51,360 bases of DNA. It comes from a virus (lineage: Duplodnaviria; Heunggongvirae; Uroviricota; Caudoviricetes). Each line of letters opens with the position of its first letter. The first letter of the stretch is position 1. Below are positions 7,548 to 27,945 of this stretch, piece after piece. The DNA is taken from IMG/VR virus record IMGVR_UViG_3300032103_000073; one strand, 5' to 3'. The translations under genes were made by a program, and so were the position numbers. The notes beneath the pieces were generated by a model. The model had not been told where the DNA came from, ran no database searches, and worked only from the letters and a program-made list of their open reading frames with translations.

Positions 7548-8170
7548 AAACAATGTTAATACTAACAGGGCCACAAGGCTCTGGTAATCATATGTGGAGT
7601 AAAGTTTTTAGTTTACATAAAGATGTATATGGCTGGGACGAATTAAATTCTACTTATTGGATTGGGCACGACCGAGAACCTTTTAATGAATACTGGAAAG
7701 ACCCTACTAAACTTAAAGAGTTCGATTGGTCATTGTCTGATTACTATATAACAAGTATAAGTGTACCTTACATAGAGAATGGTGTTACTACAGTTCCTGC
7801 GTTTGATAAATTTATCAGTCAATTAGAGCAATTAGGTATTAAAGTAATCATCGGCGTTATCGGTAGAGATAAAAACATTTTAGCCATGCAAGAACAACGA
7901 CTACGCGGCGGTCTAACTTATACAACAGCTTTAGAATGTTTTCGACGATTGCCTTTAGATCAAATTTATTTCTTAAGTCATGAACTATTAATTTTATACA
8001 GACAACAATATTTAAATAAGATTAGCAACGATTTAAAGTTTCCTATAGATACTAACAACATAAAAATAGAAGAAATTTTAAAAGACAATGCAAATAAAAA
8101 ATATCTCAAACCGATTTCGGAATATTGGGTAGACAATTTAGCAAAAAACAGTTCAAGGAAATGGCGATGA
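7544..8170 (+). CDS. P-loop/sulfotransferase-like protein
   Basis: LILTGPQGSGNH; IGRD; SHE. Confidence 0.45.
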   Translation: MKTMLILTGPQGSGNHMWSKVFSLHKDVYGWDELNSTYWIGHDREPFNEYWKDPTKLKEFDWSLSDYYITSISVPYIENGVTTVPAFDKFISQLEQLGIKVIIGVIGRDKNILAMQEQRLRGGLTYTTALECFRRLPLDQIYFLSHELLILYRQQYLNKISNDLKFPIDTNNIKIEEILKDNANKKYLKPISEYWVDNLAKNSSRKWR

Positions 8171-8964
8171 AACAAGCACAACGAATTCTTATAATGGGCT
8201 TACCAGGCTCAGGTAAAACTTATCTGGCAGAACAGTTAAAGAAACGATTAAACGAATGTAATAAAACTGTAGGCTGGCTTAATGCAGATGCCATCCGTAG
8301 TCATTACAACGATTGGGACTTTAGTCGAGAAGGTCGTATTAGACAAAGTTTGCGTATGCGGGAATTAGCAGACGAATCTAACACAGATTATTGTATTGTT
8401 GATTTTGTCGCACCTTTAGTAGAGATGCGAAATAATTTTAAAGCAGACTGGACGATTTGGGTAGACACAATTAAAGAAGGTCGCTACGAAGACACTAATA
8501 AAATGTTTGTTGAGCCTGAAGTTTATGATTTCCGTATAACAGAACAAGATGCCGAAAAATGGGCAGATTTTATTGCAGAACATATTGTAGATAATCGTCG
8601 TAGACCTCGTTTTGATTGGCAAAAAGAAACTGTACAAATGTTAGGGCGTTGGCAACCATGGCACGCAGGCCATAGAGCATTATTCGAACGTGCAATTGCA
8701 AAAACTGGTCAAGTATGTATTATGATTAGAGATTGTCAAGGCTGGAACGGCAGCAATCCGTTTGCTATTAAACAGGTTAAAAATTATATTAAACGAGATT
8801 TGGACCCGTTATATCAAGGGCAATATGAAATACAAGTGGTTCCTAATATAACAAACATAACCTATGGCAGAGATGTAGGCTATACAATCACACAAGAAAC
8901 ATTTGACGAAACTATCACTAGCATAAGTGCAACTAAGATTCGTAAGGAAATGGGTATTGAGTGA
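8167..8964 (+). CDS. adenylylsulfate kinase-like domain fused to an HxGH nucleotidyltransferase domain
   Basis: MGLPGSGKT, LNADAIR and FSREGR (CysC-like); C-terminal GRWQPWHAGH...ISATKIR. Confidence 0.8.
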   Translation: MKQAQRILIMGLPGSGKTYLAEQLKKRLNECNKTVGWLNADAIRSHYNDWDFSREGRIRQSLRMRELADESNTDYCIVDFVAPLVEMRNNFKADWTIWVDTIKEGRYEDTNKMFVEPEVYDFRITEQDAEKWADFIAEHIVDNRRRPRFDWQKETVQMLGRWQPWHAGHRALFERAIAKTGQVCIMIRDCQGWNGSNPFAIKQVKNYIKRDLDPLYQGQYEIQVVPNITNITYGRDVGYTITQETFDETITSISATKIRKEMGIE

Positions 8965-9167: not shown

Positions 9168-9283
9168 AACAACCTACCTTAGGTTCCGTTGTCGCTAACG
9201 GTTATCTGCGTAAGCAGAAGGCGTCAAACAGGCGGCTGCTGCCTGGACTAGCATTACGCCAGATGCTACTTAAAGTGAGCTTT
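9168..9283 (+). ncRNA. candidate structured ncRNA (unknown family)
   Basis: Five consecutive hairpins including a GTAA tetraloop, possible pseudoknots, directly downstream of TAAATA at 9157. Confidence 0.55.
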
Positions 9284-9297
9284 AAATATTTTATACC

Positions 9298-9717
9298 ATG
9301 AAGATCAATGATATAATCACCGAAGCCACTTATGGTATAGATACCAGATATTCTGCTGAAGATTTAAATTTACTGTTCCAAGCTGCAAATGATATATCAA
9401 GAGTCGCTTTAAAAAATCTAGGCATAACAATACAAATAACTAGCCATTTTAAAGACCAAATACAACAAAAGAGAAATCGCGGACCTGAACTTTTACCAAA
9501 AATAACTCCCGTAGAACTAATAGATGCGTTTTCTCGTATTCTTAATCGTGGTCTAAAGTTTTTTAAAAACAAAGATGAAGGCACTAACTATGTTTTCTTC
9601 GACCAACAAACACTGTTAAATATCCCTTTAATTAAAAAGGCTGAGACTAGATATGCTGTTCCTACTATTTTAAAATCTAGAAAATACTACGGCCGGGATC
9701 AAAAAATTACCTTATGA
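9298..9717 (+). CDS. hypothetical protein with capsid-targeting-like leader
   Basis: MKINDIITEA start; TAAATA at 9283. Confidence 0.65.
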   Translation: MKINDIITEATYGIDTRYSAEDLNLLFQAANDISRVALKNLGITIQITSHFKDQIQQKRNRGPELLPKITPVELIDAFSRILNRGLKFFKNKDEGTNYVFFDQQTLLNIPLIKKAETRYAVPTILKSRKYYGRDQKITL

Positions 9718-10250
9718 AAACTGTTATCCTAGTAGCACTACCAGAAGAGTTAGATGCCAAGTTAGTCGATTGCCCTGTAGTTTATACCGGAGTTGGACTT
9801 AGTAACGCTGCTATGATGACCTACGATGCTATCATCGAACATAGCCCAGATCGTATTATTAACTACGGATCAGCCGGTGCCCTTAAACAACATACAGGCC
9901 TGTTAAGCATTGCCGCAGTTTGCCAGCGTGATGCAGATTGCAGCCCATTGCGAGAGCGTGGATTTATGCTAGGTGAAAACATACTTTACTATCAAAGCGG
10001 CAACACAGGCATTCGCTGCGGCAGTGGCAATAACTTTGTTACCAATCCGGACCAATGGACCCAAGATCACTGCGACATAGTAGACATGGAACTTTGGGCT
10101 ATTGCTAAGGTATGCGATTTACACAAAATCCCATGGACCAGCATGAAATGGATCAGCGACAATGCTGACGGCGAAGCAGGCACAACCTGGGAATCAGCAT
10201 TAAAGGCTGGTGAAACTGCGTTTGTCAAGTGGCTAAACAACCAAAAATAA
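9714..10250 (+). CDS. mtnN: MTA/SAH nucleosidase (PNP/UDP phosphorylase family)
   Basis: TGVG..NAA, INYGSAG, VDMEL.AIAKVC and KWISDNAD motifs. Confidence 0.8.
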   Translation: MKTVILVALPEELDAKLVDCPVVYTGVGLSNAAMMTYDAIIEHSPDRIINYGSAGALKQHTGLLSIAAVCQRDADCSPLRERGFMLGENILYYQSGNTGIRCGSGNNFVTNPDQWTQDHCDIVDMELWAIAKVCDLHKIPWTSMKWISDNADGEAGTTWESALKAGETAFVKWLNNQK

Positions 10251-10299
10251 TCGTTGATCTATTTTGGTAAAGATCATAAAATACAAAACTATTCGCTTG

Positions 10300-10750
10300 T
10301 TTGATTAGTGTAGGCTAATCCCCATTGAGATTGTACAGGTTGTGCTGTGCCGTCGGAGTCTTGGGTCGAATACGTAAGGGATTAACGAAAGATCCTAAAA
10401 GATGCGGCAATGTGAAAAAGATACAACCGCAAGCTGGTATAGTTTCGCTGTATGGGACTATACTGCTACCGCTGACAGTCAAATCTTAAGTAAGGGGTAC
10501 AGGTCAACCGCCTCTGTTATCAGCCTCATGTTGATAAATCTTATTAATACAGTGTGAAAGCAGAACTCACGAAATGTTTTTACTTTTTGCCGGTTAACGG
10601 CAAATTGTGACCGAATCTACGAAATATTAAGCACTGTTAATACCAAAGTTTCCAGCATATAAAAGAATAGAAATTTTAAGCCGAATACGAAGTATGAAGG
10701 CTTAAATGTGCGTGAGCACATAAAATACCGCTAGTACAAATGCCTAGCTA
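10300..10750 (+). ncRNA. candidate large structured ncRNA (alternatively a replication origin)
   Basis: 544-bp gap with no ORF >=60 aa, packed with hairpins (e.g. 10303-10320, 10437-10463, 10517-10537, 10586-10604, 10675-10706, 10706-10721). Confidence 0.55.
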
Positions 10751-10794
10751 TGACTGGACTTTTTAATAAATAAAAGAAACAAATTGGAGTTCTC

Positions 10795-11538
10795 ATGATT
10801 TTATTAGAGGGTGGAAATGTATTTGATACCGCTGTACCTTTTGACCATAAAGATGTCCCTGCTATACTAAAAACAGTTAATGCGGCATTACAAGGCACTG
10901 GAATTACAGTTATTCCTGTTGGTAGTGCAGCTAGTCCAACACCCGGTAAACAAAGCGGCGATATGGATGTATTAGCCGATGAAGCAGCAGTTATGAGTTA
11001 TTTTAACGCTAAAGATGCCAAAACGGCACGTAAGGCATTAAACGATTACATAGCCGGAAAAGGTCTAGCTACAGCACAAACAGGTATTAACGTTCACGTA
11101 AATGTTCCGGTTGGTACAGAATATCACCAAGTTGATATTATGGTCACTGCTAATGCAGACAGGATCGCTAAATTCCATACACATAGTATTCCAAAAGGTA
11201 GTCCTTACAAAGGCGTAAACAAACAATTACTCATGGCTTTTCTAGCCAAAGACAAAGGCTATATGTGGAGTGCATGGCAAGGCTTATTCAGCAGAACTCC
11301 TGAAGGTAAAAAAGGTGAATTTGTTACTGACGACTTATCTAAGATTGCAGAGATTTTAACCGGGCGTGCTGATGCTACAGTATTAGGTAGCGTGGAAAGT
11401 ATCTTAGCTGCATTACCGCAGCAACAGGCGGCTGAACTATTAGCTCGCGGTCGGGCTGATCCTAATTGGAAAGAAGTTAAACAAGAAAGCCGAGTTGGTA
11501 CTAACGAATGGTTCCGTAATATGTTAAACAGACTATGA
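10795..11538 (+). CDS. Pol-beta-superfamily nucleotidyltransferase-like protein
   Basis: VGSA...SGDMDVL...QVDIM catalytic pattern; MILLEGG leader; TAAATA at 10767 and GGAG RBS. Confidence 0.65.
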   Translation: MILLEGGNVFDTAVPFDHKDVPAILKTVNAALQGTGITVIPVGSAASPTPGKQSGDMDVLADEAAVMSYFNAKDAKTARKALNDYIAGKGLATAQTGINVHVNVPVGTEYHQVDIMVTANADRIAKFHTHSIPKGSPYKGVNKQLLMAFLAKDKGYMWSAWQGLFSRTPEGKKGEFVTDDLSKIAEILTGRADATVLGSVESILAALPQQQAAELLARGRADPNWKEVKQESRVGTNEWFRNMLNRL

Positions 11539-12404
11539 AAATAAACGAATTCCAATTAGACGAAATAGAACGCTTAAGCCCTAGTGGCTTTTCGGGCGGC
11601 AAGTCATATTTAGACAGCTACGGTAGAGAAAAAACTGTTCGTAAACTACCAGGTGGTAGCGGTTTGTTATATTCTATAACAAAACAAGGCAGTGAGTTTA
11701 TTGTTAAACTTTGGGATAAGGCTAGCAAGGGAGAATATAAAGAACCTCCAATGAACCCCGAACGTCCTAGTTATTATACTAGACGTGAATGGGCCAGTCG
11801 ATTAGAATATATAAAACAAAGAAACGCTAGACGAAAAGCAGAATTTGATAACGCACCGGGCAAACTGGTAGGACAACTTACATTGAACAATGTTGGTCCT
11901 TATTTCCCACTTAACGGTGCAGTCCAAGTCGGAACAATCACCGTTGATGAAGACTATCGTGGCGTGGGTTTAGCCAAAGCGTTATATGGTATTGTCTTAA
12001 CTATTATGAAGCGTCCGCTACTGGCTGGCTCTAGTCAAACACCTGGTGGCCGTAGAAACTGGCTGAGCTTGAGTCAGATCCCTGGTGTTGAAATGAAGGG
12101 CTATTTCAAGGTTGATAACTGGGACTTAGAAACTGATGATCCTGCTGATGCAAGCAGAGCAAGTGATAAAAGGTATATTGCTAGCAAAAACAAAGCTGCT
12201 GAAAAACGAATAGATACAATTATGGGTAAGCTAGGTGGGCAATATATCGGCAAAGGTCGCGAAGGCTATCACTACTTTGCCTTTGATGTGCAACCTAACA
12301 CTACTAAGCAAGAACTACAGGCCTACGTAGATACAAACCTAAACAAGGTATACGGCAACTATAATTCCGATACGGGATTGTATGCAGTTTGGACAGGACA
12401 ATGA
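11535..12404 (+). CDS. GNAT-family acetyltransferase-like protein
   Basis: Acetyl-CoA motif A: ITVDEDYRGVGLAKALY; MKINEF leader. Confidence 0.65.
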   Translation: MKINEFQLDEIERLSPSGFSGGKSYLDSYGREKTVRKLPGGSGLLYSITKQGSEFIVKLWDKASKGEYKEPPMNPERPSYYTRREWASRLEYIKQRNARRKAEFDNAPGKLVGQLTLNNVGPYFPLNGAVQVGTITVDEDYRGVGLAKALYGIVLTIMKRPLLAGSSQTPGGRRNWLSLSQIPGVEMKGYFKVDNWDLETDDPADASRASDKRYIASKNKAAEKRIDTIMGKLGGQYIGKGREGYHYFAFDVQPNTTKQELQAYVDTNLNKVYGNYNSDTGLYAVWTGQ

Positions 12405-12943
12405 AAATAAACGAACTGGTCTTATCAAAAAATGCATGGGAGTTGTTAATCTCCAACGCCGATAAAGAAGAAGTTGGAGATGATCTTATAAGTCTTGTTC
12501 AAACAGCGTATACTAACACATCTGATGGTAGTTTTATAAACAGTTTAAAAGATGTTATACCTAGCGATTGGAATGTAATCGACTGGGATCAAGATCCTGA
12601 TGTTGATGCCTGTGTATTTTATAGGGAAGCTCGTACTAACGAAGCATGGGTAGGATATAAGATACAAGGCATTGGACATGATGGCACTAGAACAAGTAAA
12701 GACAAAGCCATACAAAAGATACAAGCATTGCTAACTAAACCAGGTATATGGTTAGAGTCAAGTGATGCTATGCGAGCAGTATTAAAGAAACTTAATGTGC
12801 CTGCCGTAGAAGATGTTAGAATTTTACAAGCATTGTTTAACGATCCCTATTTGGAAATGTTTGACAATGACACTTATGATCGTAGACTGCCTACAGGTCG
12901 AGTCATAAGAGAAACAGTATTCGGAAACCCTAAACTAAAATGA
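12401..12943 (+). CDS. hypothetical protein with capsid-targeting-like leader
   Basis: MKINELV start; translationally coupled to its neighbours. Confidence 0.7.
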   Translation: MKINELVLSKNAWELLISNADKEEVGDDLISLVQTAYTNTSDGSFINSLKDVIPSDWNVIDWDQDPDVDACVFYREARTNEAWVGYKIQGIGHDGTRTSKDKAIQKIQALLTKPGIWLESSDAMRAVLKKLNVPAVEDVRILQALFNDPYLEMFDNDTYDRRLPTGRVIRETVFGNPKLK

Positions 12944-14514
12944 GATTACTAGAATTAAAAGAAACTTATATAAACCTAATCACTGAATTGAACGGTGTAA
13001 AAGACTACGGATTATTTTTAAGTTTGGCTGAAGCAGATTCAGCTAACAAGAAAATAGTAGAATCTTTAGATGAAAATTCTTTAGCACAATTAAAAAGTTT
13101 AGTTAAATTTAGTTCTAAACCTGTAGTCGGCGAAAGTTATAGAGCTGTATTGCTATTTTTCACAGGGGATAAATCAGTTAGACTAATTGGAAAAAAACAA
13201 TTTAGAAAATTAACTAAATTTGAGCAAGGAAATTTAACTTTCGATGATGGTGAAGTATTTCCTGATAAACGCATAACAGACTTGTCATACTCTAAAACAT
13301 TTTTATTTGACAATGAAGAGTCTTTTAAAAAATTTATGATGATGCTGTCATTAGGTTTTAATGTTAAAACTAATATAAGCGAAACATACTTAAAAGAAGC
13401 CGTAGATCCTAAACTAGGTCGAGCATTTAATCACTTAGAAGACCTAGTGTTTTTCTACGGCAGCAAAGGCACGATAGAAGCGCTAGAACACCTTAAGGAC
13501 ATGAACACAGAGCAAGGCAGCGGTAGTGTTCGTATGAAGTGGGACGGTAATCCTCAAATCTATTGGGGTAGAGAAAACGGGCAAATCATCCCGCCGCACG
13601 GGCATGCACAATGGGGTCGTGCTAACTTACCTGCAACCGGTAAAGATGTTGCAGATTATATCATGTCAACTGGTAAAGCATCTACTCCAGAAGAGATTGC
13701 AAGTCGACAAGAGTTTGCTAACAAGTTTGCTAGTTTAGCACCGTTGTTTGCCGCAGCAACACCCGACAAAGTAGAAGGCAACAGTACATATTATGTCTAT
13801 GCAGACGCTTTGTTCCTAAGCCCTCCAGAATTAAAAGATGGAGTGTATACGTTCTGCCCTAATCCTAAAAGCCAAACCTGTTATCACGTTCGTGCTGACA
13901 GTGAACTAGGCAAGCGTATAGCACAGGCAGAAGTTATGGTTGTTGGTCATGCTTATTTTACAGCACACGGACAAGCAGATTCTGCACAAATACCAATTAA
14001 AGACTTCAGTCATTTTAACACTAACCCTCGACTGATTGTCCTCGGTCCTATCTATAACGTAGCACCGGTTAAGGTCGATACATCAATGATAGATCAAGTC
14101 GAGAACCATATTAAACAACATAGCAAACAAGTAGATACATTCCTTGCAGGTGCTGCTGGTATGAGTGATTTAAAACAAGTTATCTACACGTATGTAAATC
14201 AAACGGCCAAGGCAAAACAGTTAGATAGTTTAAGCACTGAGCACTTTTTTGCTTGGGCAGCTACAAAAGTTTCTGCTCCAAAGCAAGAGAAAATAAAACA
14301 GTTAAATACAAGTAATAATGATGCATTGGCTGAAATATTTAAAATTGTAAGAGCAATACAAATGTTAAAAGACAACGTAATAGATCAAATCGAGTCGGGT
14401 CCTAAGGCAGATATTTGGGATACTAACGGAGAAGGTCGAGTGCGTTATGCGGATCAAAATAAACAATTCGGCAACGTCAAGTTCGTACCGAGAAAGCGTT
14501 GGACACCACAATGA
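12940..14514 (+). CDS. conserved phage protein (DUF6267-like, KxDG ligase-type motif) with an extra N-terminal module
   Basis: HLEDLVF...KWDGNPQIYWGR...EG-R-V...VKFVPR. Confidence 0.55.
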   Translation: MRLLELKETYINLITELNGVKDYGLFLSLAEADSANKKIVESLDENSLAQLKSLVKFSSKPVVGESYRAVLLFFTGDKSVRLIGKKQFRKLTKFEQGNLTFDDGEVFPDKRITDLSYSKTFLFDNEESFKKFMMMLSLGFNVKTNISETYLKEAVDPKLGRAFNHLEDLVFFYGSKGTIEALEHLKDMNTEQGSGSVRMKWDGNPQIYWGRENGQIIPPHGHAQWGRANLPATGKDVADYIMSTGKASTPEEIASRQEFANKFASLAPLFAAATPDKVEGNSTYYVYADALFLSPPELKDGVYTFCPNPKSQTCYHVRADSELGKRIAQAEVMVVGHAYFTAHGQADSAQIPIKDFSHFNTNPRLIVLGPIYNVAPVKVDTSMIDQVENHIKQHSKQVDTFLAGAAGMSDLKQVIYTYVNQTAKAKQLDSLSTEHFFAWAATKVSAPKQEKIKQLNTSNNDALAEIFKIVRAIQMLKDNVIDQIESGPKADIWDTNGEGRVRYADQNKQFGNVKFVPRKRWTPQ

Positions 14515-15332
14515 CAAATAAGTTTTATGTTTATCAGTATATTCACCCTGTGACACTACTTCCTTTTTATATCGGAAAAGGTACAAATAACAGGATGATG
14601 CATCATCTTAGAGAAACTTTTGATAATACAGAAAACAAGAAAAAATATGCAGTTATACAAGGGTTAAAAAATAAAGGTCTCTTGCCAATCGTAGAAAAAA
14701 TACAAGAAAATATAGATGAATCTGCGGCTTATGAGTTGGAAGAGACTTTAATAAAAAAATATGGGAGACGTGATTTAGACGAAAATGGTATTCTAACTAA
14801 CATATGCCAAAACAATAGACCGCCGAGCGCGAAAGGCAAACAGCGAATAGTTTCTCAAGAAGTTAAAGATAAACATGCTCGCCTAAATCAAGAACGTTGT
14901 TTGGGTAAATCTTATGAAGAAATATACGGTATTACTAGAGCTAAAGAAATTAAAGAAAAGTTGCCAAACGTAGTAGGAGAAAATAATCCTTTTTATGGAA
15001 AAACTCATTCTGCTAATACCAAGTCTATTATGTCTGAAAAAGCTAAAAGCAGAAAAGTTCCTAGTAGGCTGGGTATTCCTTTTACAGAAGAAGCTAAAAT
15101 ATTAATTGGTTTAAATAACCCTAATAGACGAGCAATACATACCCCATATGGAAAATTTACAAGTGCCGAAGAGTTTGTAAATAAAATAGGGTTAATTAGT
15201 TCTAATGGGTTGAGAAGAATTTTAAAAAATTGCGAAGATATAATTACGAAAAGACATGTCGTAAATAACAAATTACTTACAGAACAAGATATTGGTAAAT
15301 CTTTTAAAGATATAGGGTATTATTTTTTATGA
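14511..15332 (+). mobile_element. free-standing GIY-YIG-type homing endonuclease with NUMOD3 motif
   Basis: FYVYQY...PFYIGKG..NR, E..LIKKYGR...LTN; GENNPFYGKTHS. Confidence 0.85.
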
Positions 15333-16999
15333 AAATTAGACAAATATTAAAAGAAGCAGCGGGTGTTACGGCGGCATTTGCATACGGCAGATGGAATCCT
15401 TGTCACATGGGCCATATTGCAGTATGGAAAACTGTACAGAACGCTGGAGTAAAATGGTACATTGGTACAAACCCAAGCACATTAGGACCCAATGATCCTT
15501 TAACATTTGAACAAAAGTCTGCATGGATGGAAGCTATCTATCCTGCTATTGCCGGACATATTGCAGCAGAACAAAGCGTAGTCACGTTAGCAGCAAAAAT
15601 TTATAAAGACCTGGGCAATAAGGAAGATGCTACTATTGCCTATATCACAGACGAAACAGACTGGGCTTGGAGTGGTAAGTTATTAAATCAATACAACGGC
15701 GTAGAAGGTCGCCATGGCTATTACAAGTTTGCACAAATTGTTCACGTACCTAGTCCCCGCGTAAGCAGTGCAACAGCATTACGTGATGCAGCTCGTGCTG
15801 GAGATAAAGTTGCTTTCTATCATGCAAGTGGTACAGATCCTAAATTAAAAGTTGCAGGTAAAACTTATTTTGATACTGTAAAAGAAGCTTGTGAGAAATT
15901 TCCATTGCCTGTTAAGCGGGCAAAGAAAACTGAAAGTATAGAAGCAGGCCTACGTTGGAGTGATTTACCAGAATCAATTAGCGTTAATGGTAAGATTGCA
16001 ATTCTCGAAGAATTTTACATTAAGGGAAATTTAACAGAATCTAACAATGACAACACAATCGAATCGTTTAACAATTTATACCAAAACATACAACTTAAAA
16101 AAGGTAAGAGATATATTGTTGTTCCTTTAATGCTACTTAATAATCGAATCATATCGTTAGATTCTCCTGCACTAGCAACATTCGTAGAACAAAATAGTCA
16201 AGGTAGTAAATTTAAAGTTAAAGAAGCAGTTGTAAGTTATCCTCCTGCTTCTTTAACAGATAAATCTACAACAAACACTTTCGTCTTCGAAACATCATCT
16301 AGCTACAACGAATTTAGGACTATGTTAAAATTAAAGTTTAACACAGACTTACCTAGCGTATCTTTAGATGAGGCAAGTCTTGCCACTATGAGAGCTTATT
16401 TTGCAGGCGATAAAGATGCACAGGACGAAATGGAAATAACTAAACAAAGAAAACATTACGAAAACGAAAAACGTAAAGAATTCAGAAGTCCGTGGGAATA
16501 CGAACAATGGCTTAAAAAGTATAAGCAAACACTTATCGGTGGAAAAATTAAAGAAGATGATGAAACAGGCGAAATAGAACGTCAAGGTAATTTAATACCT
16601 TTCCCACAAGGAACTACTTTAGTTAAAGTAAGTGACGTTTATGACTGGTATAAACTAGGACAAGTTATAAGTGATTTAGATGATGCCGATCCTAAACTAT
16701 TCGGTCAAGGTGCACCTGAAACTATTTTAGCTTTTGGCAGCGAAGAAGAAGAACATAAGCTATTACCTTTATTGCAAAAGTTAGGTTTAAAGTTAAAAGA
16801 TGTTGACCAGCCAGTTAGTGAAGCATATAGAGCAACTGACTTATTTGAGTATCTACGTAAAATACACAAGCGTTGGGCTATAGTAAGTAAGCGAGAAGGA
16901 CGTCCTTTAGTTTATTTTAAAGGCGAAGGCAAGCCTAGTAAAGAATGGGTCAAGAAGCAAGAGCGTCGAATAGAATATTTTAAGCATAAGAAAAAATGA
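15329..16999 (+). CDS. HxGH cytidylyltransferase-like domain plus C-terminal modules
   Basis: YGRWNPCHMGH...NDPL...SSATALR; MKIRQILKEA leader. Confidence 0.7.
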   Translation: MKIRQILKEAAGVTAAFAYGRWNPCHMGHIAVWKTVQNAGVKWYIGTNPSTLGPNDPLTFEQKSAWMEAIYPAIAGHIAAEQSVVTLAAKIYKDLGNKEDATIAYITDETDWAWSGKLLNQYNGVEGRHGYYKFAQIVHVPSPRVSSATALRDAARAGDKVAFYHASGTDPKLKVAGKTYFDTVKEACEKFPLPVKRAKKTESIEAGLRWSDLPESISVNGKIAILEEFYIKGNLTESNNDNTIESFNNLYQNIQLKKGKRYIVVPLMLLNNRIISLDSPALATFVEQNSQGSKFKVKEAVVSYPPASLTDKSTTNTFVFETSSSYNEFRTMLKLKFNTDLPSVSLDEASLATMRAYFAGDKDAQDEMEITKQRKHYENEKRKEFRSPWEYEQWLKKYKQTLIGGKIKEDDETGEIERQGNLIPFPQGTTLVKVSDVYDWYKLGQVISDLDDADPKLFGQGAPETILAFGSEEEEHKLLPLLQKLGLKLKDVDQPVSEAYRATDLFEYLRKIHKRWAIVSKREGRPLVYFKGEGKPSKEWVKKQERRIEYFKHKKK

Positions 17000-19407
17000 A
17001 ATACACTGAAATTTTAGAACAACTAATCAATGAAGTCAATATGAGTCCCGGCATATTGCGTAAACTAGCAGCAAATATAGATGCTCGAGCTGGTATGGAA
17101 TTTGAAATGATCGTTCCTGAAATCGGAGATATGGACGGATCGGATTACTTCGAAAGCGAACCTGATTACGATCAAGACGAAAGTATAGGAGACTTTGATG
17201 ACATTAGAAGGTTTTTCCATGACGGAGATCATAACAGTCGTCAAGCAGTTGCTAGTCTTATGGATGAGATCATGGAAGCGTATTATGACAGTGACTTTTT
17301 AAGCGAAAAGAAACGAGAAGAATGGGCGGATGCATCATACGATATTATTAAAGAACTAGTTGATAGAGATTATAGCGATGCACTGTATGATCAAGCTGTA
17401 GAAGAAATAGAAAAAGCTAATCCAGAATTTGGTGTAGGCACAGAAGAGTTTAGGAAATCAGTTGATCAATTACACAGTGAAAAAATTAAAGAAAAAGTTG
17501 ATGAAATTTTAGCAGACATGGGCAGCGACTATGACGAAGCCTACGATGAATGGGAAAATAACGACTGGCAAAATATAATGTCCGACACTGATACGCAAAG
17601 TGAATGGCTAGAATTTGAAGGTCATACTGCCATGAGTGATATTTCCAGAAACTATGATATTGAATGGCCCTACTGGACTGAATATGATGGCAGCGGCGGC
17701 GGTGAAGAAAATGCAGAGCGTATTGCTGACGACTTTAGCAATCACATGGGCAAGCGAGTAAATTTTAGCACTAGTTATCACGGAGCACGACGAGAGCCTA
17801 ACGCTTATGTAGTTGAACCCGACGGCAGTTTAGAAGGCGATGAGCCCGGCGATGCAGGACTAGAGTTTGTTAGCCCGCCGATGCCTATCAACGAACTACT
17901 TGCAGATCTAGCATCTGTAAAAGAATGGGCCGATAAAAATGGCTGCTATACCAATGACAGCACAGGCTTGCACATCAACGTTAGTGTTCCTGACTTTAGT
18001 ATGGAAAAACTAGACTATGTTAAGTTAGCAGTATTATTAGGCGATGAAAGAGTGTTAAACGAATTTGGCCGTATGGGTAATACCTACGCTAAAAGTGCTT
18101 TACAAATTGTCAAGCAAAACATTAAACAACGCCCAGAAGATGCAGCAGCATTGCTAAACAAAATGAAAGAACATTTAAGCACCGCAGCAGCAAAAGTTAT
18201 ACACAGCGGCACAACTAGCAAGTTTACAAGTATCAATACTAAAAGCGGTTATATAGAATTCCGCAGTCCGGGCGGCGATTGGTTAAATGCTAACTTTAGC
18301 CTAATTGAACCAACACTGCTACGTTTTGTTGTTGCACTAGATGCAGCATTAGACGAAACAAAATACAAACAAGAATATGCTAAGAAATTGTACAAGTTAT
18401 TAGCACCTAGTAGCAATGAGCCCGGCATCGTAGAATTATTTGCAAATTTTAGTGCTGGTGAGTTAGATAAGGAAGCATTAATTAGACAAGTTCGTGCTGC
18501 ACAATTAAGTCGAGATATTTCAAAAGGTAAAAATCCACTAGGTAAGAAATATTGGTGGAACGTAGAATGGAGTAACGGTCGCCGCATGGAAGTTGTTGCG
18601 CCAAACGAAAAAGTAGCCAAAGACGTTGCAGCCGAAGAATGGGGCGTACATCATGAAAGCGAAGCAGCATTGAGCTTTAAAGCTAGTGTCTTACGTCCTT
18701 ATGAAGAAACTCCTACAACTGCAACTCCTGCACAACAGACAGCACCGGCAGCACCACAAAGTTCTGTAAATACCCCGCCTGCAAGCGGAGAAGGTATGTC
18801 AGGCAACTGGGGTCTGTGGCTAACCAATGCTGAACGATTTGCAAAATGGGGCGGAACAGAAGATTTAAGAAGATTTACAACTCGAGCAGCAGCAGAACAA
18901 TACTTGGCAGATTTGCGTCAGTCTAATCCTACGGTACGAAGCGATATCGAAATTCGTGAGATTGAACCTACACAAGCCGACCAGTTTCAAGAACCTAATG
19001 CTAATCGCGGTGATTTAACACCACGCGGCCCGGGCCCATGGGAAATTTACAGAATAAGCGATGGAAGCCGTGTTCGAGTCCTAGACCATACCAATCGCAT
19101 GGCAGCAGAGCAAGAAGCACGCACCGCACTAGGCTTGCGTGCAGAAGCACCTGAACTATACGGTGTTAGAACTCGCCAACAAGCTGATACTGCTCTTGCA
19201 CGTACAGCAACAGTTCCTGGACAAGCACAACAACGTTTTACAGGATACTGGGACGTTAAGATCGGCGATGAAGTTGTATTTAGAGTACAAGCAGAAACTC
19301 AAGGCGAAGCAAACCAAAAAGCTCGTGCTTGGATATTACAACGTAGTCCGGAATTTATTAGACAACACGAAGGCGGTGAAGTTACAGTGACACCGAGATA
19401 CGAATAA
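16996..19407 (+). CDS. putative amidoligase (COOH-NH2 ligase type 2) with acidic insert and C-terminal repeats
   Basis: GMEFE, EPDGSL, LEFVSPP, TNDSTGLHINV, KFTSIN and IEFR motifs. Confidence 0.75.
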   Translation: MKYTEILEQLINEVNMSPGILRKLAANIDARAGMEFEMIVPEIGDMDGSDYFESEPDYDQDESIGDFDDIRRFFHDGDHNSRQAVASLMDEIMEAYYDSDFLSEKKREEWADASYDIIKELVDRDYSDALYDQAVEEIEKANPEFGVGTEEFRKSVDQLHSEKIKEKVDEILADMGSDYDEAYDEWENNDWQNIMSDTDTQSEWLEFEGHTAMSDISRNYDIEWPYWTEYDGSGGGEENAERIADDFSNHMGKRVNFSTSYHGARREPNAYVVEPDGSLEGDEPGDAGLEFVSPPMPINELLADLASVKEWADKNGCYTNDSTGLHINVSVPDFSMEKLDYVKLAVLLGDERVLNEFGRMGNTYAKSALQIVKQNIKQRPEDAAALLNKMKEHLSTAAAKVIHSGTTSKFTSINTKSGYIEFRSPGGDWLNANFSLIEPTLLRFVVALDAALDETKYKQEYAKKLYKLLAPSSNEPGIVELFANFSAGELDKEALIRQVRAAQLSRDISKGKNPLGKKYWWNVEWSNGRRMEVVAPNEKVAKDVAAEEWGVHHESEAALSFKASVLRPYEETPTTATPAQQTAPAAPQSSVNTPPASGEGMSGNWGLWLTNAERFAKWGGTEDLRRFTTRAAAEQYLADLRQSNPTVRSDIEIREIEPTQADQFQEPNANRGDLTPRGPGPWEIYRISDGSRVRVLDHTNRMAAEQEARTALGLRAEAPELYGVRTRQQADTALARTATVPGQAQQRFTGYWDVKIGDEVVFRVQAETQGEANQKARAWILQRSPEFIRQHEGGEVTVTPRYE

Positions 19408-20090
19408 TGCGAGTTGATGATATCGTTTCTACTGAACTAGACGAAGGATGGAAGGATTGGGTAGCTGGTGCCGCTATGGGTGCAGCAGCCCTTTCTGCAC
19501 AACCAGCACAAGCTAAACAGTTACCGTCGACACCTCCTGCTGCAACAGCACAAGCATTAAGTTATGACCAAACAACACAACTAGTTTTAAAACCAGCCGC
19601 CAAAATACTAATACAAACTGCTCAAGCGGCAGGTATAAAAGGAAACGAGCTAGCACAGCTAGTAGCTCAGTGTGCTCATGAAACCGCTAACTTTACACGT
19701 CTAACAGAATTCGGCGGTCGGTTAGATTTTAGAAAATACGATCCAAAACACAATCCACGCAAGGCAAAGATGCTAGGTAATAAACAGGCGGGCGACGGGG
19801 AGCGTTATAAAGGGCGAGGTTATATACAACTAACTGGCAGAGACAATTATAAACGTGCAGGACAAGCACTAGGATTGCCATTAGAACAACGCCCTGAACT
19901 AGTCGAGCGTCCTGACGTAGCTGCTAAAGTAGCAGTTTGGTTTTGGCAACAGCAAGTTGCTCCTCGTGTAAATAACTTTAATGATACTGCACAAGTAACT
20001 AAACCAATCAACAGCGGCTTAAAAGGTTTAGAAGATAGACACAGCAAGTTTGCAGGTATAATGAACTTAATCAAAGGTAAGAAATCATGA
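19407..20090 (+). CDS. glycoside hydrolase family 19 (chitinase/lysozyme-type) peptidoglycan hydrolase
   Basis: AQCAHET, GDGERYKGRGYIQLTGRDNY and INSGLKGLEDR motifs. Confidence 0.9.
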   Translation: MRVDDIVSTELDEGWKDWVAGAAMGAAALSAQPAQAKQLPSTPPAATAQALSYDQTTQLVLKPAAKILIQTAQAAGIKGNELAQLVAQCAHETANFTRLTEFGGRLDFRKYDPKHNPRKAKMLGNKQAGDGERYKGRGYIQLTGRDNYKRAGQALGLPLEQRPELVERPDVAAKVAVWFWQQQVAPRVNNFNDTAQVTKPINSGLKGLEDRHSKFAGIMNLIKGKKS

Positions 20091-27381: not shown

Positions 27382-27638
27382 TGCAAATCAAACGTCAAAT
27401 AGAAGAATTGGTTAGAGTAGAACTAACCAATTCGCAATTCACAGCATTAGAGTCTTTTGTATCAAGTCAAGGTATTGCTATATTTAGAAACAGCACTTTA
27501 CTCAAGGCAATAAACAGAAATGATATGCCAACAGCAGTTGCAGAATTCCGTAAATGGATTTTACAATCCGGTCGTCCTTCAGTTGAACTGGCAGATCTTC
27601 GAGAAAAAGAAATCGCCCTCTTTACCAAACAATCTTGA
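27381..27638 (+). CDS. GH24 phage-lysozyme C-terminal lobe only (no catalytic N-lobe)
   Basis: V.LTNSQFTALESF...G...FRNSTLLK.IN....A..EF.KW...R..E..LF. Confidence 0.6.
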   Translation: MQIKRQIEELVRVELTNSQFTALESFVSSQGIAIFRNSTLLKAINRNDMPTAVAEFRKWILQSGRPSVELADLREKEIALFTKQS

Positions 27639-27664
27639 CCTTTAGTTATAGTTGCTGCTATAAT
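27635..27664 (+). promoter_or_regulatory. sigma70-type promoter for the replication genes
   Basis: TTGACC-18bp-TATAAT with extended -10 TGn; AGGAG RBS downstream. Confidence 0.65.
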
Positions 27665-27687
27665 AACACTTTACTTTAGGAGTTATT

Positions 27688-27945
27688 ATGGATCCACGTA
27701 TGTTCAGTGCCGATGAAAAGGCCAAAATCAAAAAACTATTTGCCGAAGGCATGCAAGTGATGAGCGAAGTCGCTGCACTTAACGAAGGTCTCACCGATAC
27801 TATTAAAGGTATTGCAGAAGAACTTGATATGAAGCCCGGCGTGCTAAAAAAAGCACTCAAGATCGCTTATAAAAACGAGTTTGAAAAAGAACAAAATGCC
27901 TTTACAGAAGTTGAAGAAGTTCTTGAAGTTGCAGGTCACCGTTGA
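27688..27945 (+). CDS. small dsDNA-binding protein (T4 DsbA/GapR-like)
   Basis: 85-aa helical protein, IKGIAEELDMKPGVLKKALKIAYK; located before the polymerase gene. Confidence 0.55.
   Translation: MDPRMFSADEKAKIKKLFAEGMQVMSEVAALNEGLTDTIKGIAEELDMKPGVLKKALKIAYKNEFEKEQNAFTEVEEVLEVAGHR

Follow-up and report, generated by a model that had tools for sequence, protein, structure and literature searches.

It is rare for a large RNA of intricate fold to have no known function, and several such RNAs have proved to be new machines. GOLLD, ROOL, HEARO, OLE and raiA resemble the RNA described here in size class, in their many helices and pseudoknots, in their association with phages or mobile elements and in having been discovered by comparative genomics. 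To our knowledge, none of them has two identical co-varying boxes, and their Rfam models match neither the window nor 26 related loci. CsrB-type sponges and the IS110 bridge RNA carry repeated or paired short recognition segments on a conserved scaffold; this is a resemblance only. The words of the present RNA are identical and do not form two different guides, and its scaffold is unrelated. The catalogued relative is Polynucleobacter-1 (RF01718), which in the literature searched appears only in Weinberg et al. (2010, Genome Biol 11:R31, PMC2864571), as an orphan motif of 141 nt. According to these authors the 3' half is not always detected, the RNAs lie 3' of a gene resembling PSSM2_218 of cyanophage P-SSM2, phage genes are suspected nearby, and the motif is possibly cis-regulatory; the flanks of the alignment were printed but never modelled (PMC2864571).

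The window, that is, the whole stretch of 51,360 nt analysed (IMG/VR record IMGVR_UViG_3300032103_000073), contains at 10251-10794 an ORF-poor gap of 544 bp. The initial annotation had called it the longest intergenic gap, which stands: the only rival stretch checked, 27382-27941, is occupied by two coupled ORFs of 85 aa. The gap and its neighbours are organized as follows.

9714-10250 (+): PNP_UDP_1-type phosphorylase-like gene, upstream neighbour of the RNA
10254-10282 (+): sigma-70-like promoter, TTGATC-17-nt spacer-TAAAAT, scoring 9/12 in a consensus scan
10290-10722 (+): RNA gene, a window-type member of the twin-box (extended Polynucleobacter-1) family, from conservation and covariation
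10739-10759 (+): conserved 3' tail AAATGCCTAGCTATGACTGGA, possibly part of the RNA, which it accompanies where the next gene differs
10762-10794 (+): TAAATA-type late-promoter-like box and ribosome-binding site of the 247-aa gene, outside the cassette and present at the empty site of relative L013
10795-11538 (+): 247-aa gene without family match, downstream neighbour of the RNA

Positions 10290-10722 (+) are neither protein-coding nor a leader or origin; they encode a structured RNA. The RNA gene is real: it is a relocated and divergent paralogue belonging to a phage RNA family that is widespread and for the most part uncatalogued.

Fold and conservation of the RNA

The large structured phage ncRNA proposed for the + strand is borne out by the folding of that strand, by its G-U pairs and by covariation. 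The folding z-score of the whole gap was -3.1 for the + strand and -1.4 for the - strand, and that of the 436-nt core alone was -1.8. The thermodynamic signal is modest on its own, and the case therefore rests on comparative evidence. RNAalifold on 39 sequences yielded 41 pairs, 26 of which have changes on both sides; compensatory changes are visible in the alignments for nearly every hairpin, and G-U pairs are conserved at many positions, on the + strand only. The central domain (window 10484-10631) was described by a covariance model, R1. In the R1 alignment of 70 distinct sequences 92.3% of the cells were paired, compared with 44-53% when the partners were slid, and double changes occurred in 13 pairs (162 cells), a level reached by 0/500 shuffles. 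The elements of the fold are listed below.

10303-10320 (+): hairpin Pa, GATTAG/CTAATC; each of the four inner pairs is changed on both sides in 10-17 sequences
10321-10365 (+): helix Pb, CCCA/TGGG, enclosing Pc; versions CGCA/TGTG, CCCG/CGGG, CGTCA/TGACG and ATCCA/TGGAT, read, like those of Pc, from alignments whose MAFFT columns are here partly out of register
10333-10338 / 10345-10350 (+): hairpin Pc, GTACAG/CTGTGC; versions AATTGG/CCAATT and GGACTGG/CCAGTCC
10379-10395 (+): hairpin Pd with the conserved loop (T)AACGAAA(G); covarying pairs 10380/10394, 10381/10393 and 10382/10392 (types UA/AU, GC/AU, CG/UG)
10404-10430 (+): hairpin Pe, GCGG/CCGC, with the conserved loop ..TGTGAAAAAGATACAA, nearly invariant family-wide; GC/TA changes at 10406/10428
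10434-10466 (+): hairpin Pf, CTGGTATAGT / ACTATACTGC region; 13 pairs by RNAalifold, most with 13-17 double changes
10446-10453 (+): 5' strand of pseudoknot Pi, CGCTGTAT, in the Pf loop; partner 10547-10554
10470-10476 / 10503-10510 (+): tentative pseudoknot Px, CGCTGAC with GTCAACCG, seen by eye only
10487-10490 / 10540-10543 (+): helix Ph (10487-10543; helix 1), TAAG/CTTA, enclosing the core and Pg; five Watson-Crick versions (AGAG/CTCT, TGAG/CTCA, GGAG/CTCC, AAAG/CTTT, TAAG/CTTA), 98.9% paired
10491-10516 (+): invariant core TAAGGGGTACAGGTCAACCGCCTCTG with the 21-mer, stem AGGGG/CCTCT and a loop of 11-13 nt; one compensatory change in the stem, GC to AU, in locus L149 (pair 12-32)
10517-10538 (+): variable hairpin Pg (helix 4), TTATCAGC / GTTGATAA; pairing kept while length and sequence vary
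10547-10554 (+): 3' strand of pseudoknot Pi, ATACAGTG, just after Ph, covarying with the Pf loop
10562-10580 (+): hairpin Pk (helix 5), 9-nt loop TC + ACGAAAT; the weakest helix, 66% paired
10569-10575 (+): twin box 1, ACGAAAT, after CTC, in the Pk loop
10586-10604 (+): GC-rich hairpin Pl (helix 6), TTTGCCG/CGGCAAA; 100% paired, double changes in 4/7 pairs
10619-10625 (+): twin box 2, ACGAAAT, after TCT, in a stretch without conserved local fold
within 10675-10721 (+): 3' hairpin Pm, TTTAAGCC / GGCTTAAA, inner TACG/GTAT; AAGCC/GGCTT, GTTTC/GAAAC and GATTC/GAATC in the alignments
within 10675-10721 (+): 3' hairpin Pn, ATGTGC/GCACAT; pair types UA, GC, CG and AU

Box 2 and the 3' hairpins Pm and Pn are connected by an A-rich linker. 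All the stems that had been read from the single sequence are present where they were placed, and on comparison with homologous regions the helices keep pairing through many compensatory changes; most of the listed stems, namely those of Pa, Pe, Pg, Pl, Pm and Pn together with the GTATAGT/ACTATAC hairpin, are kept in this way. A proposed pairing of the loop CACTGT with ACAGTG (10549-10554) did not survive, as it is not kept in relatives. ACAGTG pairs instead with the loop of the GTATAGT hairpin, forming the covarying pseudoknot Pi, for which more than 15 different complementary word pairs were found across 84 sequences. A second pseudoknot, Px, is suggested by compensating versions seen by eye in two distant lineages. 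Its pairing in the window has one bulged C and one C-A mismatch, and the compensating versions are GUUGAU/GUCAAC in the main type and GCGUUA/UAAC(C)GC in L149; the version GCGUUUU/GAAAC(C)GC occurs in the Polynucleobacter sequence printed in the alignment of PMC2864571. The RNA thus has at least one pseudoknot and probably two.

The RNA family, the cassette and its second copy

Three features mark the twin-box family, and the window RNA has them all: the core AAGGGGTACNGGTCAACCGCC inside Ph, two identical 7-nt words and the Pf-loop pseudoknot. The core 21-mer (window 10492-10512) was found in more than 120 IMG/VR contigs among the matches listed, mostly from T4-like phages, and in the species genomes it gave 1 match among ~185,000. 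In the main lineage the order is a gp46/SbcC-like gene, a 142-aa SegE-type GIY-YIG gene, the RNA and then a convergent baseplate hub gene, and this context identifies the carriers as T4-like phages. The window RNA shares with the uncatalogued main-lineage RNA the exact 21-nt core, helices Pa-Pn, Pi and the twin-box layout; it differs in its word (ACGAAAU), its genomic place, its occurrence as a second copy and its longer Pc and Pg. The subfamilies are alignable by BLAST over 28-120 nt only. A BLASTN search of 50,697 GenBank phage records with the window copy and with a main-lineage copy gave no match, and to judge from these records cultured phages lack the RNA at detectable similarity. The family has a wide distribution among uncultured T4-like phages, in lakes as well as seas.

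No Rfam model matched the RNA, either at the gathering threshold (whole window) or at E up to 10 (10100-10900), and on 26 related loci only chance hits were obtained (for example a snoRNA, the PyrG leader and mir-338). ARAGORN found nothing. These searches agree with the initial annotation, which had recognized no tmRNA, RNase P or group I/II intron signature and had called for an Infernal/Rfam check. Its further claim that the RNA is undescribed needs qualification: no Rfam model matches the window, but a related 5' third was catalogued in 2010 as Polynucleobacter-1.

Identity of the window RNA with RF01718 itself was rejected, as there was no match at the 37-bit gathering cut-off or at E up to 10; fifteen main-lineage IMG/VR records gave no RF01718 match either. 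The positive control, L149:1962-2103 in the 235-kb relative G016 (IMGVR_UViG_3300042889_001272), behind a small GIY-YIG gene, scored 77.2 bits. About 100 nt 3' of this match R1 matched as well (L149:2202-2346, 43 bits, E 2e-6 to 1.5e-5). The flanks of the 2010 alignment (supplement file 101, PMC2864571) contain the AACCGCC core hairpin, the Pf-loop pseudoknot, the Pl GC hairpin and two identical boxes (GAACUCAGCGAAAGU / GAAUCUAGCGAAAGU), so that RF01718 has the downstream extension of the present family. From the tandem RF01718 and R1 matches and the published flanks it follows that RF01718 is the 5' third of a sister lineage. The two belong to the same superfamily by architecture and share the fresh water or estuary habitat and the same kind of host record; the RF01718 model, however, is confined to 141 positions of the 5' part, and the 5' third of the window RNA has a different hairpin order. 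Since RF01718 has no match in the window, homology of the 5' third is argued only from position and rough hairpin order. The genomic context differs too: the gene upstream of the window RNA is PNP_UDP_1-like, and not the small GOS11034/PSSM2_218-like gene, of the 142-aa GIY-YIG type, found 5' of RF01718.

The RNA is an insertable cassette between the PNP_UDP_1-type gene and the 247-aa gene. Of 22 IMG/VR loci recovered with the 247-aa protein, 10 have the RNA element, at a nucleotide identity of 78-85%. L013 is without the RNA: 24 nt separate its two flanking genes, and the TAAATA box and ribosome-binding site of the 247-aa gene are still there, right after the upstream stop codon. In L006, L007, L011, L023 and L031 other genes follow the RNA; unrelated ORFs stand before or after it in other relatives, and the locus is an insertion hotspot. 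The earlier proposal that the RNA heads a 'virion-cargo operon' finds no support here: L013 retains the gene's own signals without the cassette, and other relatives have other downstream genes.

In one 235-kb relative, G016, the window-type RNA is an extra copy beside the canonical one behind the small GIY-YIG gene. This genome has both RNA types, at 92695-92831 and 217237-217381, 124 kb apart. The words of the window type (92.7 kb) are ACGAAAU and those of the RF01718 type (217.2 kb) are CGACAGG/UGACAAG, the latter boxes differing at two positions, both by transitions. Only the RF01718-type copy is adjoined by a small GIY-YIG gene. Each of five large main-lineage records, among them one that is 89% complete, has just one RNA copy. 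The exact 21-mer of the window type recurs in the main lineage and not in the resident RF01718-type copy, which hints at acquisition from another phage rather than local duplication. The window adds three things: the RNA need not accompany the small GIY-YIG nuclease gene, it is mobile as a cassette, and two versions with different twin words are possible in one phage. Taken together, they favour a modular RNA that bears an address over the partner of one neighbouring gene.

The twin boxes and alternative explanations

The near-duplicate GAACTCACGAAAT / GAATCTACGAAAT that had been noticed earlier is real and turned out to be the hallmark of the family. Boxes 1 and 2, about 50 nt apart, are identical in 85/85 distinct sequences, which together use 10 different words; within the window subfamily the word ACGAAAU is invariant. 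By mutual information, the columns of box 1 are coupled to those of box 2 only. Neither mutual information nor a complement search in the RNA revealed an internal partner of the boxes that holds for all word classes. The Pf loop was considered as a partner and rejected as a general rule: all window-type sequences and many of the main type do have a 6-nt complement there if G-U pairs are counted, but it is absent in three word classes, and AU-rich similarity to the Pi strand explains it. Complements of the words were then counted in ~0.8 Mb of flanking phage DNA, comparing own loci with other loci and with permuted words, and were neither enriched nor consistently depleted. With no internal partner and no enrichment nearby, the reader of the boxes lies outside the RNA. 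As a separate observation, ATTTCGT occurred once on the RNA-sense strand of the window-type loci (114 kb), compared with a mean of 7.8 for permuted words (4th percentile); this dearth may be a CpG effect, and the other word classes have no such trend.

Taken as a whole, the account that we consider likely is a stand-alone gene for a ncRNA of ~430 nt at 10290-10722 (+), a divergent paralogue of the twin-box RNA that is carried as a cassette. Its fold holds the invariant core hairpin (...GGGGUACAGGUCAACCGCC...) and displays the 7-nt word ACGAAAU twice. As to mechanism, we infer a reader that base-pairs with the boxes; the RNA would act in trans, and both words would pair with one pyrimidine-rich partner, here 5'-AUUUCGU-3'. 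As both words would read the same partner, the scaffold would hold two copies or two sites of it, and different paralogues and phages would have different partners. We put forward tentatively, as plausible but short of probable, that the two words of a trans-acting RNA are equivalent and exchangeable sites for base-pairing with the same pyrimidine-rich partner. A bolder extension, which we think rather unlikely, is that the twin boxes serve an RNA-guided activity as recognition segments that can be programmed. Each T4-like phage genome would then carry one or more versions, each with its own 7-nt address aimed at host or rival-phage nucleic acid, and the window cassette would be a horizontally acquired second address.

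A dimeric protein reader would explain the identical boxes equally well and is a serious alternative to the base-pairing partner. The RNA would then be a scaffold or decoy without a nucleic-acid partner, its words being sites for the halves of a dimeric RNA-binding protein of phage or host that is sequestered or assembled. Identical direct repeats, as opposed to complementary ones, suit a symmetric protein, and so does the complement that was neither found inside the RNA nor enriched nearby. However, 10 words occur among close relatives and two in one phage, so that the specificity of the protein would have to change equally fast, and no conserved partner gene accompanies the RNA, whose neighbours vary by lineage; this explanation is possible but doubtful. 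Short words that change fast and in strict step with each other, on a scaffold that is conserved, also resemble the segments of a guide RNA whose twin words would select the target of an RNA-directed nuclease or recombinase, for example a minimal GIY-YIG protein, and most family members do lie directly 3' of a GIY-YIG gene encoding the catalytic domain only. We regard this as unlikely, because the window RNA follows a nucleoside-phosphorylase-like gene, in G016 124 kb lie between the window-type copy and the only small GIY-YIG gene, itself followed by an RNA of its own, 7 nt is short for a guide, and the complement is neither consistently avoided nor enriched in phage DNA.

Alternatively, the RNA could be a cis leader or 5' UTR of the 247-aa gene, or the processing signals of a polycistronic mRNA, given that it is on the same strand as both neighbours, that no terminator stands 3' of the fold and that Polynucleobacter-1 was marked as possibly cis-regulatory. 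We hold this to be very unlikely in view of the cassette-free L013, whose 247-aa gene retains its signals, the five relatives with other downstream genes, the convergent next gene of the main lineage and a length of 430 nt with pseudoknots that far exceeds known leaders. At the DNA level, a long non-coding stretch with many inverted repeats at a gene-insertion hotspot might be a replication origin (the alternative named in the initial annotation, with GC skew as its check), a packaging site or a recombination hotspot. Yet the cumulative GC skew rises steadily and monotonically through the site, no iterons or tandem repeats were found, G-U pairs are kept on the + strand only and the - strand folds no better than its shuffles, which makes such an element exceedingly improbable. 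We give equally little credence to a degenerate group I-like intron or other mobile ribozyme and to a small protein gene. The size is in the group I range, the core is pseudoknotted, presence is polymorphic and GIY-YIG genes are nearby in the family; but no Rfam intron or ribozyme model was hit at E up to 10, RF00028 included, and the RNA lies between complete genes, none of which is interrupted by it or joined at the empty site. Short ORFs of 51-55 aa do overlap the region, but codon periodicity is absent: differences between the RNA and 9 relatives fall on the three codon phases as 138/190/197, compared with 280/165/715 and 234/166/743 in the flanking genes, a coding signature. Divergence is ~14% in the RNA region versus 24% and 17% in the flanking genes.

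Promoter, ends and surrounding genes

The RNA gene probably has its own sigma-70-type promoter at 10254-10282. Its score of 9/12 is within chance for the region taken alone; relatives have TATAAT at the same position, and in L011 and L023 TTGACA-17-TATAAT directly follows a terminator hairpin. In some relatives the upstream stop codon is so close to the RNA that co-transcription is as likely. Expression, transcript ends and processing are predicted from the DNA: the 5' end is taken from the promoter, and the conserved fold ends at hairpin Pn. No intrinsic terminator was found 3' of the fold, and read-through into the 247-aa gene would therefore be possible. No convincing helix was found that would close the RNA by joining the 5' leader to the conserved 3' tail, and the inverted repeats of 10 nt shared by the upstream coding region and the RNA were at chance level only. 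Two perfect copies of the 10-nt sequence CATAAAATAC, in direct orientation and 444 nt apart, flank the RNA at 10275-10284 and 10719-10728. They resemble a target-site duplication, but are not conserved in relatives, and this interpretation was rejected.

Several observations concern the surroundings of the RNA. Four relatives (L006:2438-2965, L007:2399-2965, L011:2438-2965 and L008:158-724) have an ORF of 175-188 aa without family match, placed after the RNA and before the 247-aa gene; it is absent from the window. L011 also has, at 621-1871, a 416-aa ORF with an N-terminal Mtd_N (major tropism determinant) domain, between the phosphorylase-like gene and the RNA. In the window the RNA is surrounded by an accessory enzyme region (8125-8964, 11535-19407 and 19407-20090), which encodes an APS-kinase-like protein fused to a cytidylyltransferase-like part, GNAT, DUF6267, a LEM-3-type GIY-YIG protein with NUMOD3, a cytidylyltransferase-like protein, Amidoligase_2 and a class I chitinase-like protein. 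The sole match of the 21-mer in a species genome is L148 (JBBALV010000052.1), a 6-kb contig binned with a Flavobacterium MAG; it carries the phosphorylase-like gene, the RNA and the 247-aa gene and is a syntenic piece of a window-type phage, so that the binning is either a hint at the host or an error. The short non-coding gap at 9172-9295 in the window, before a 139-aa gene, is conserved in this contig, with 79% identity to L148:2105-2229.
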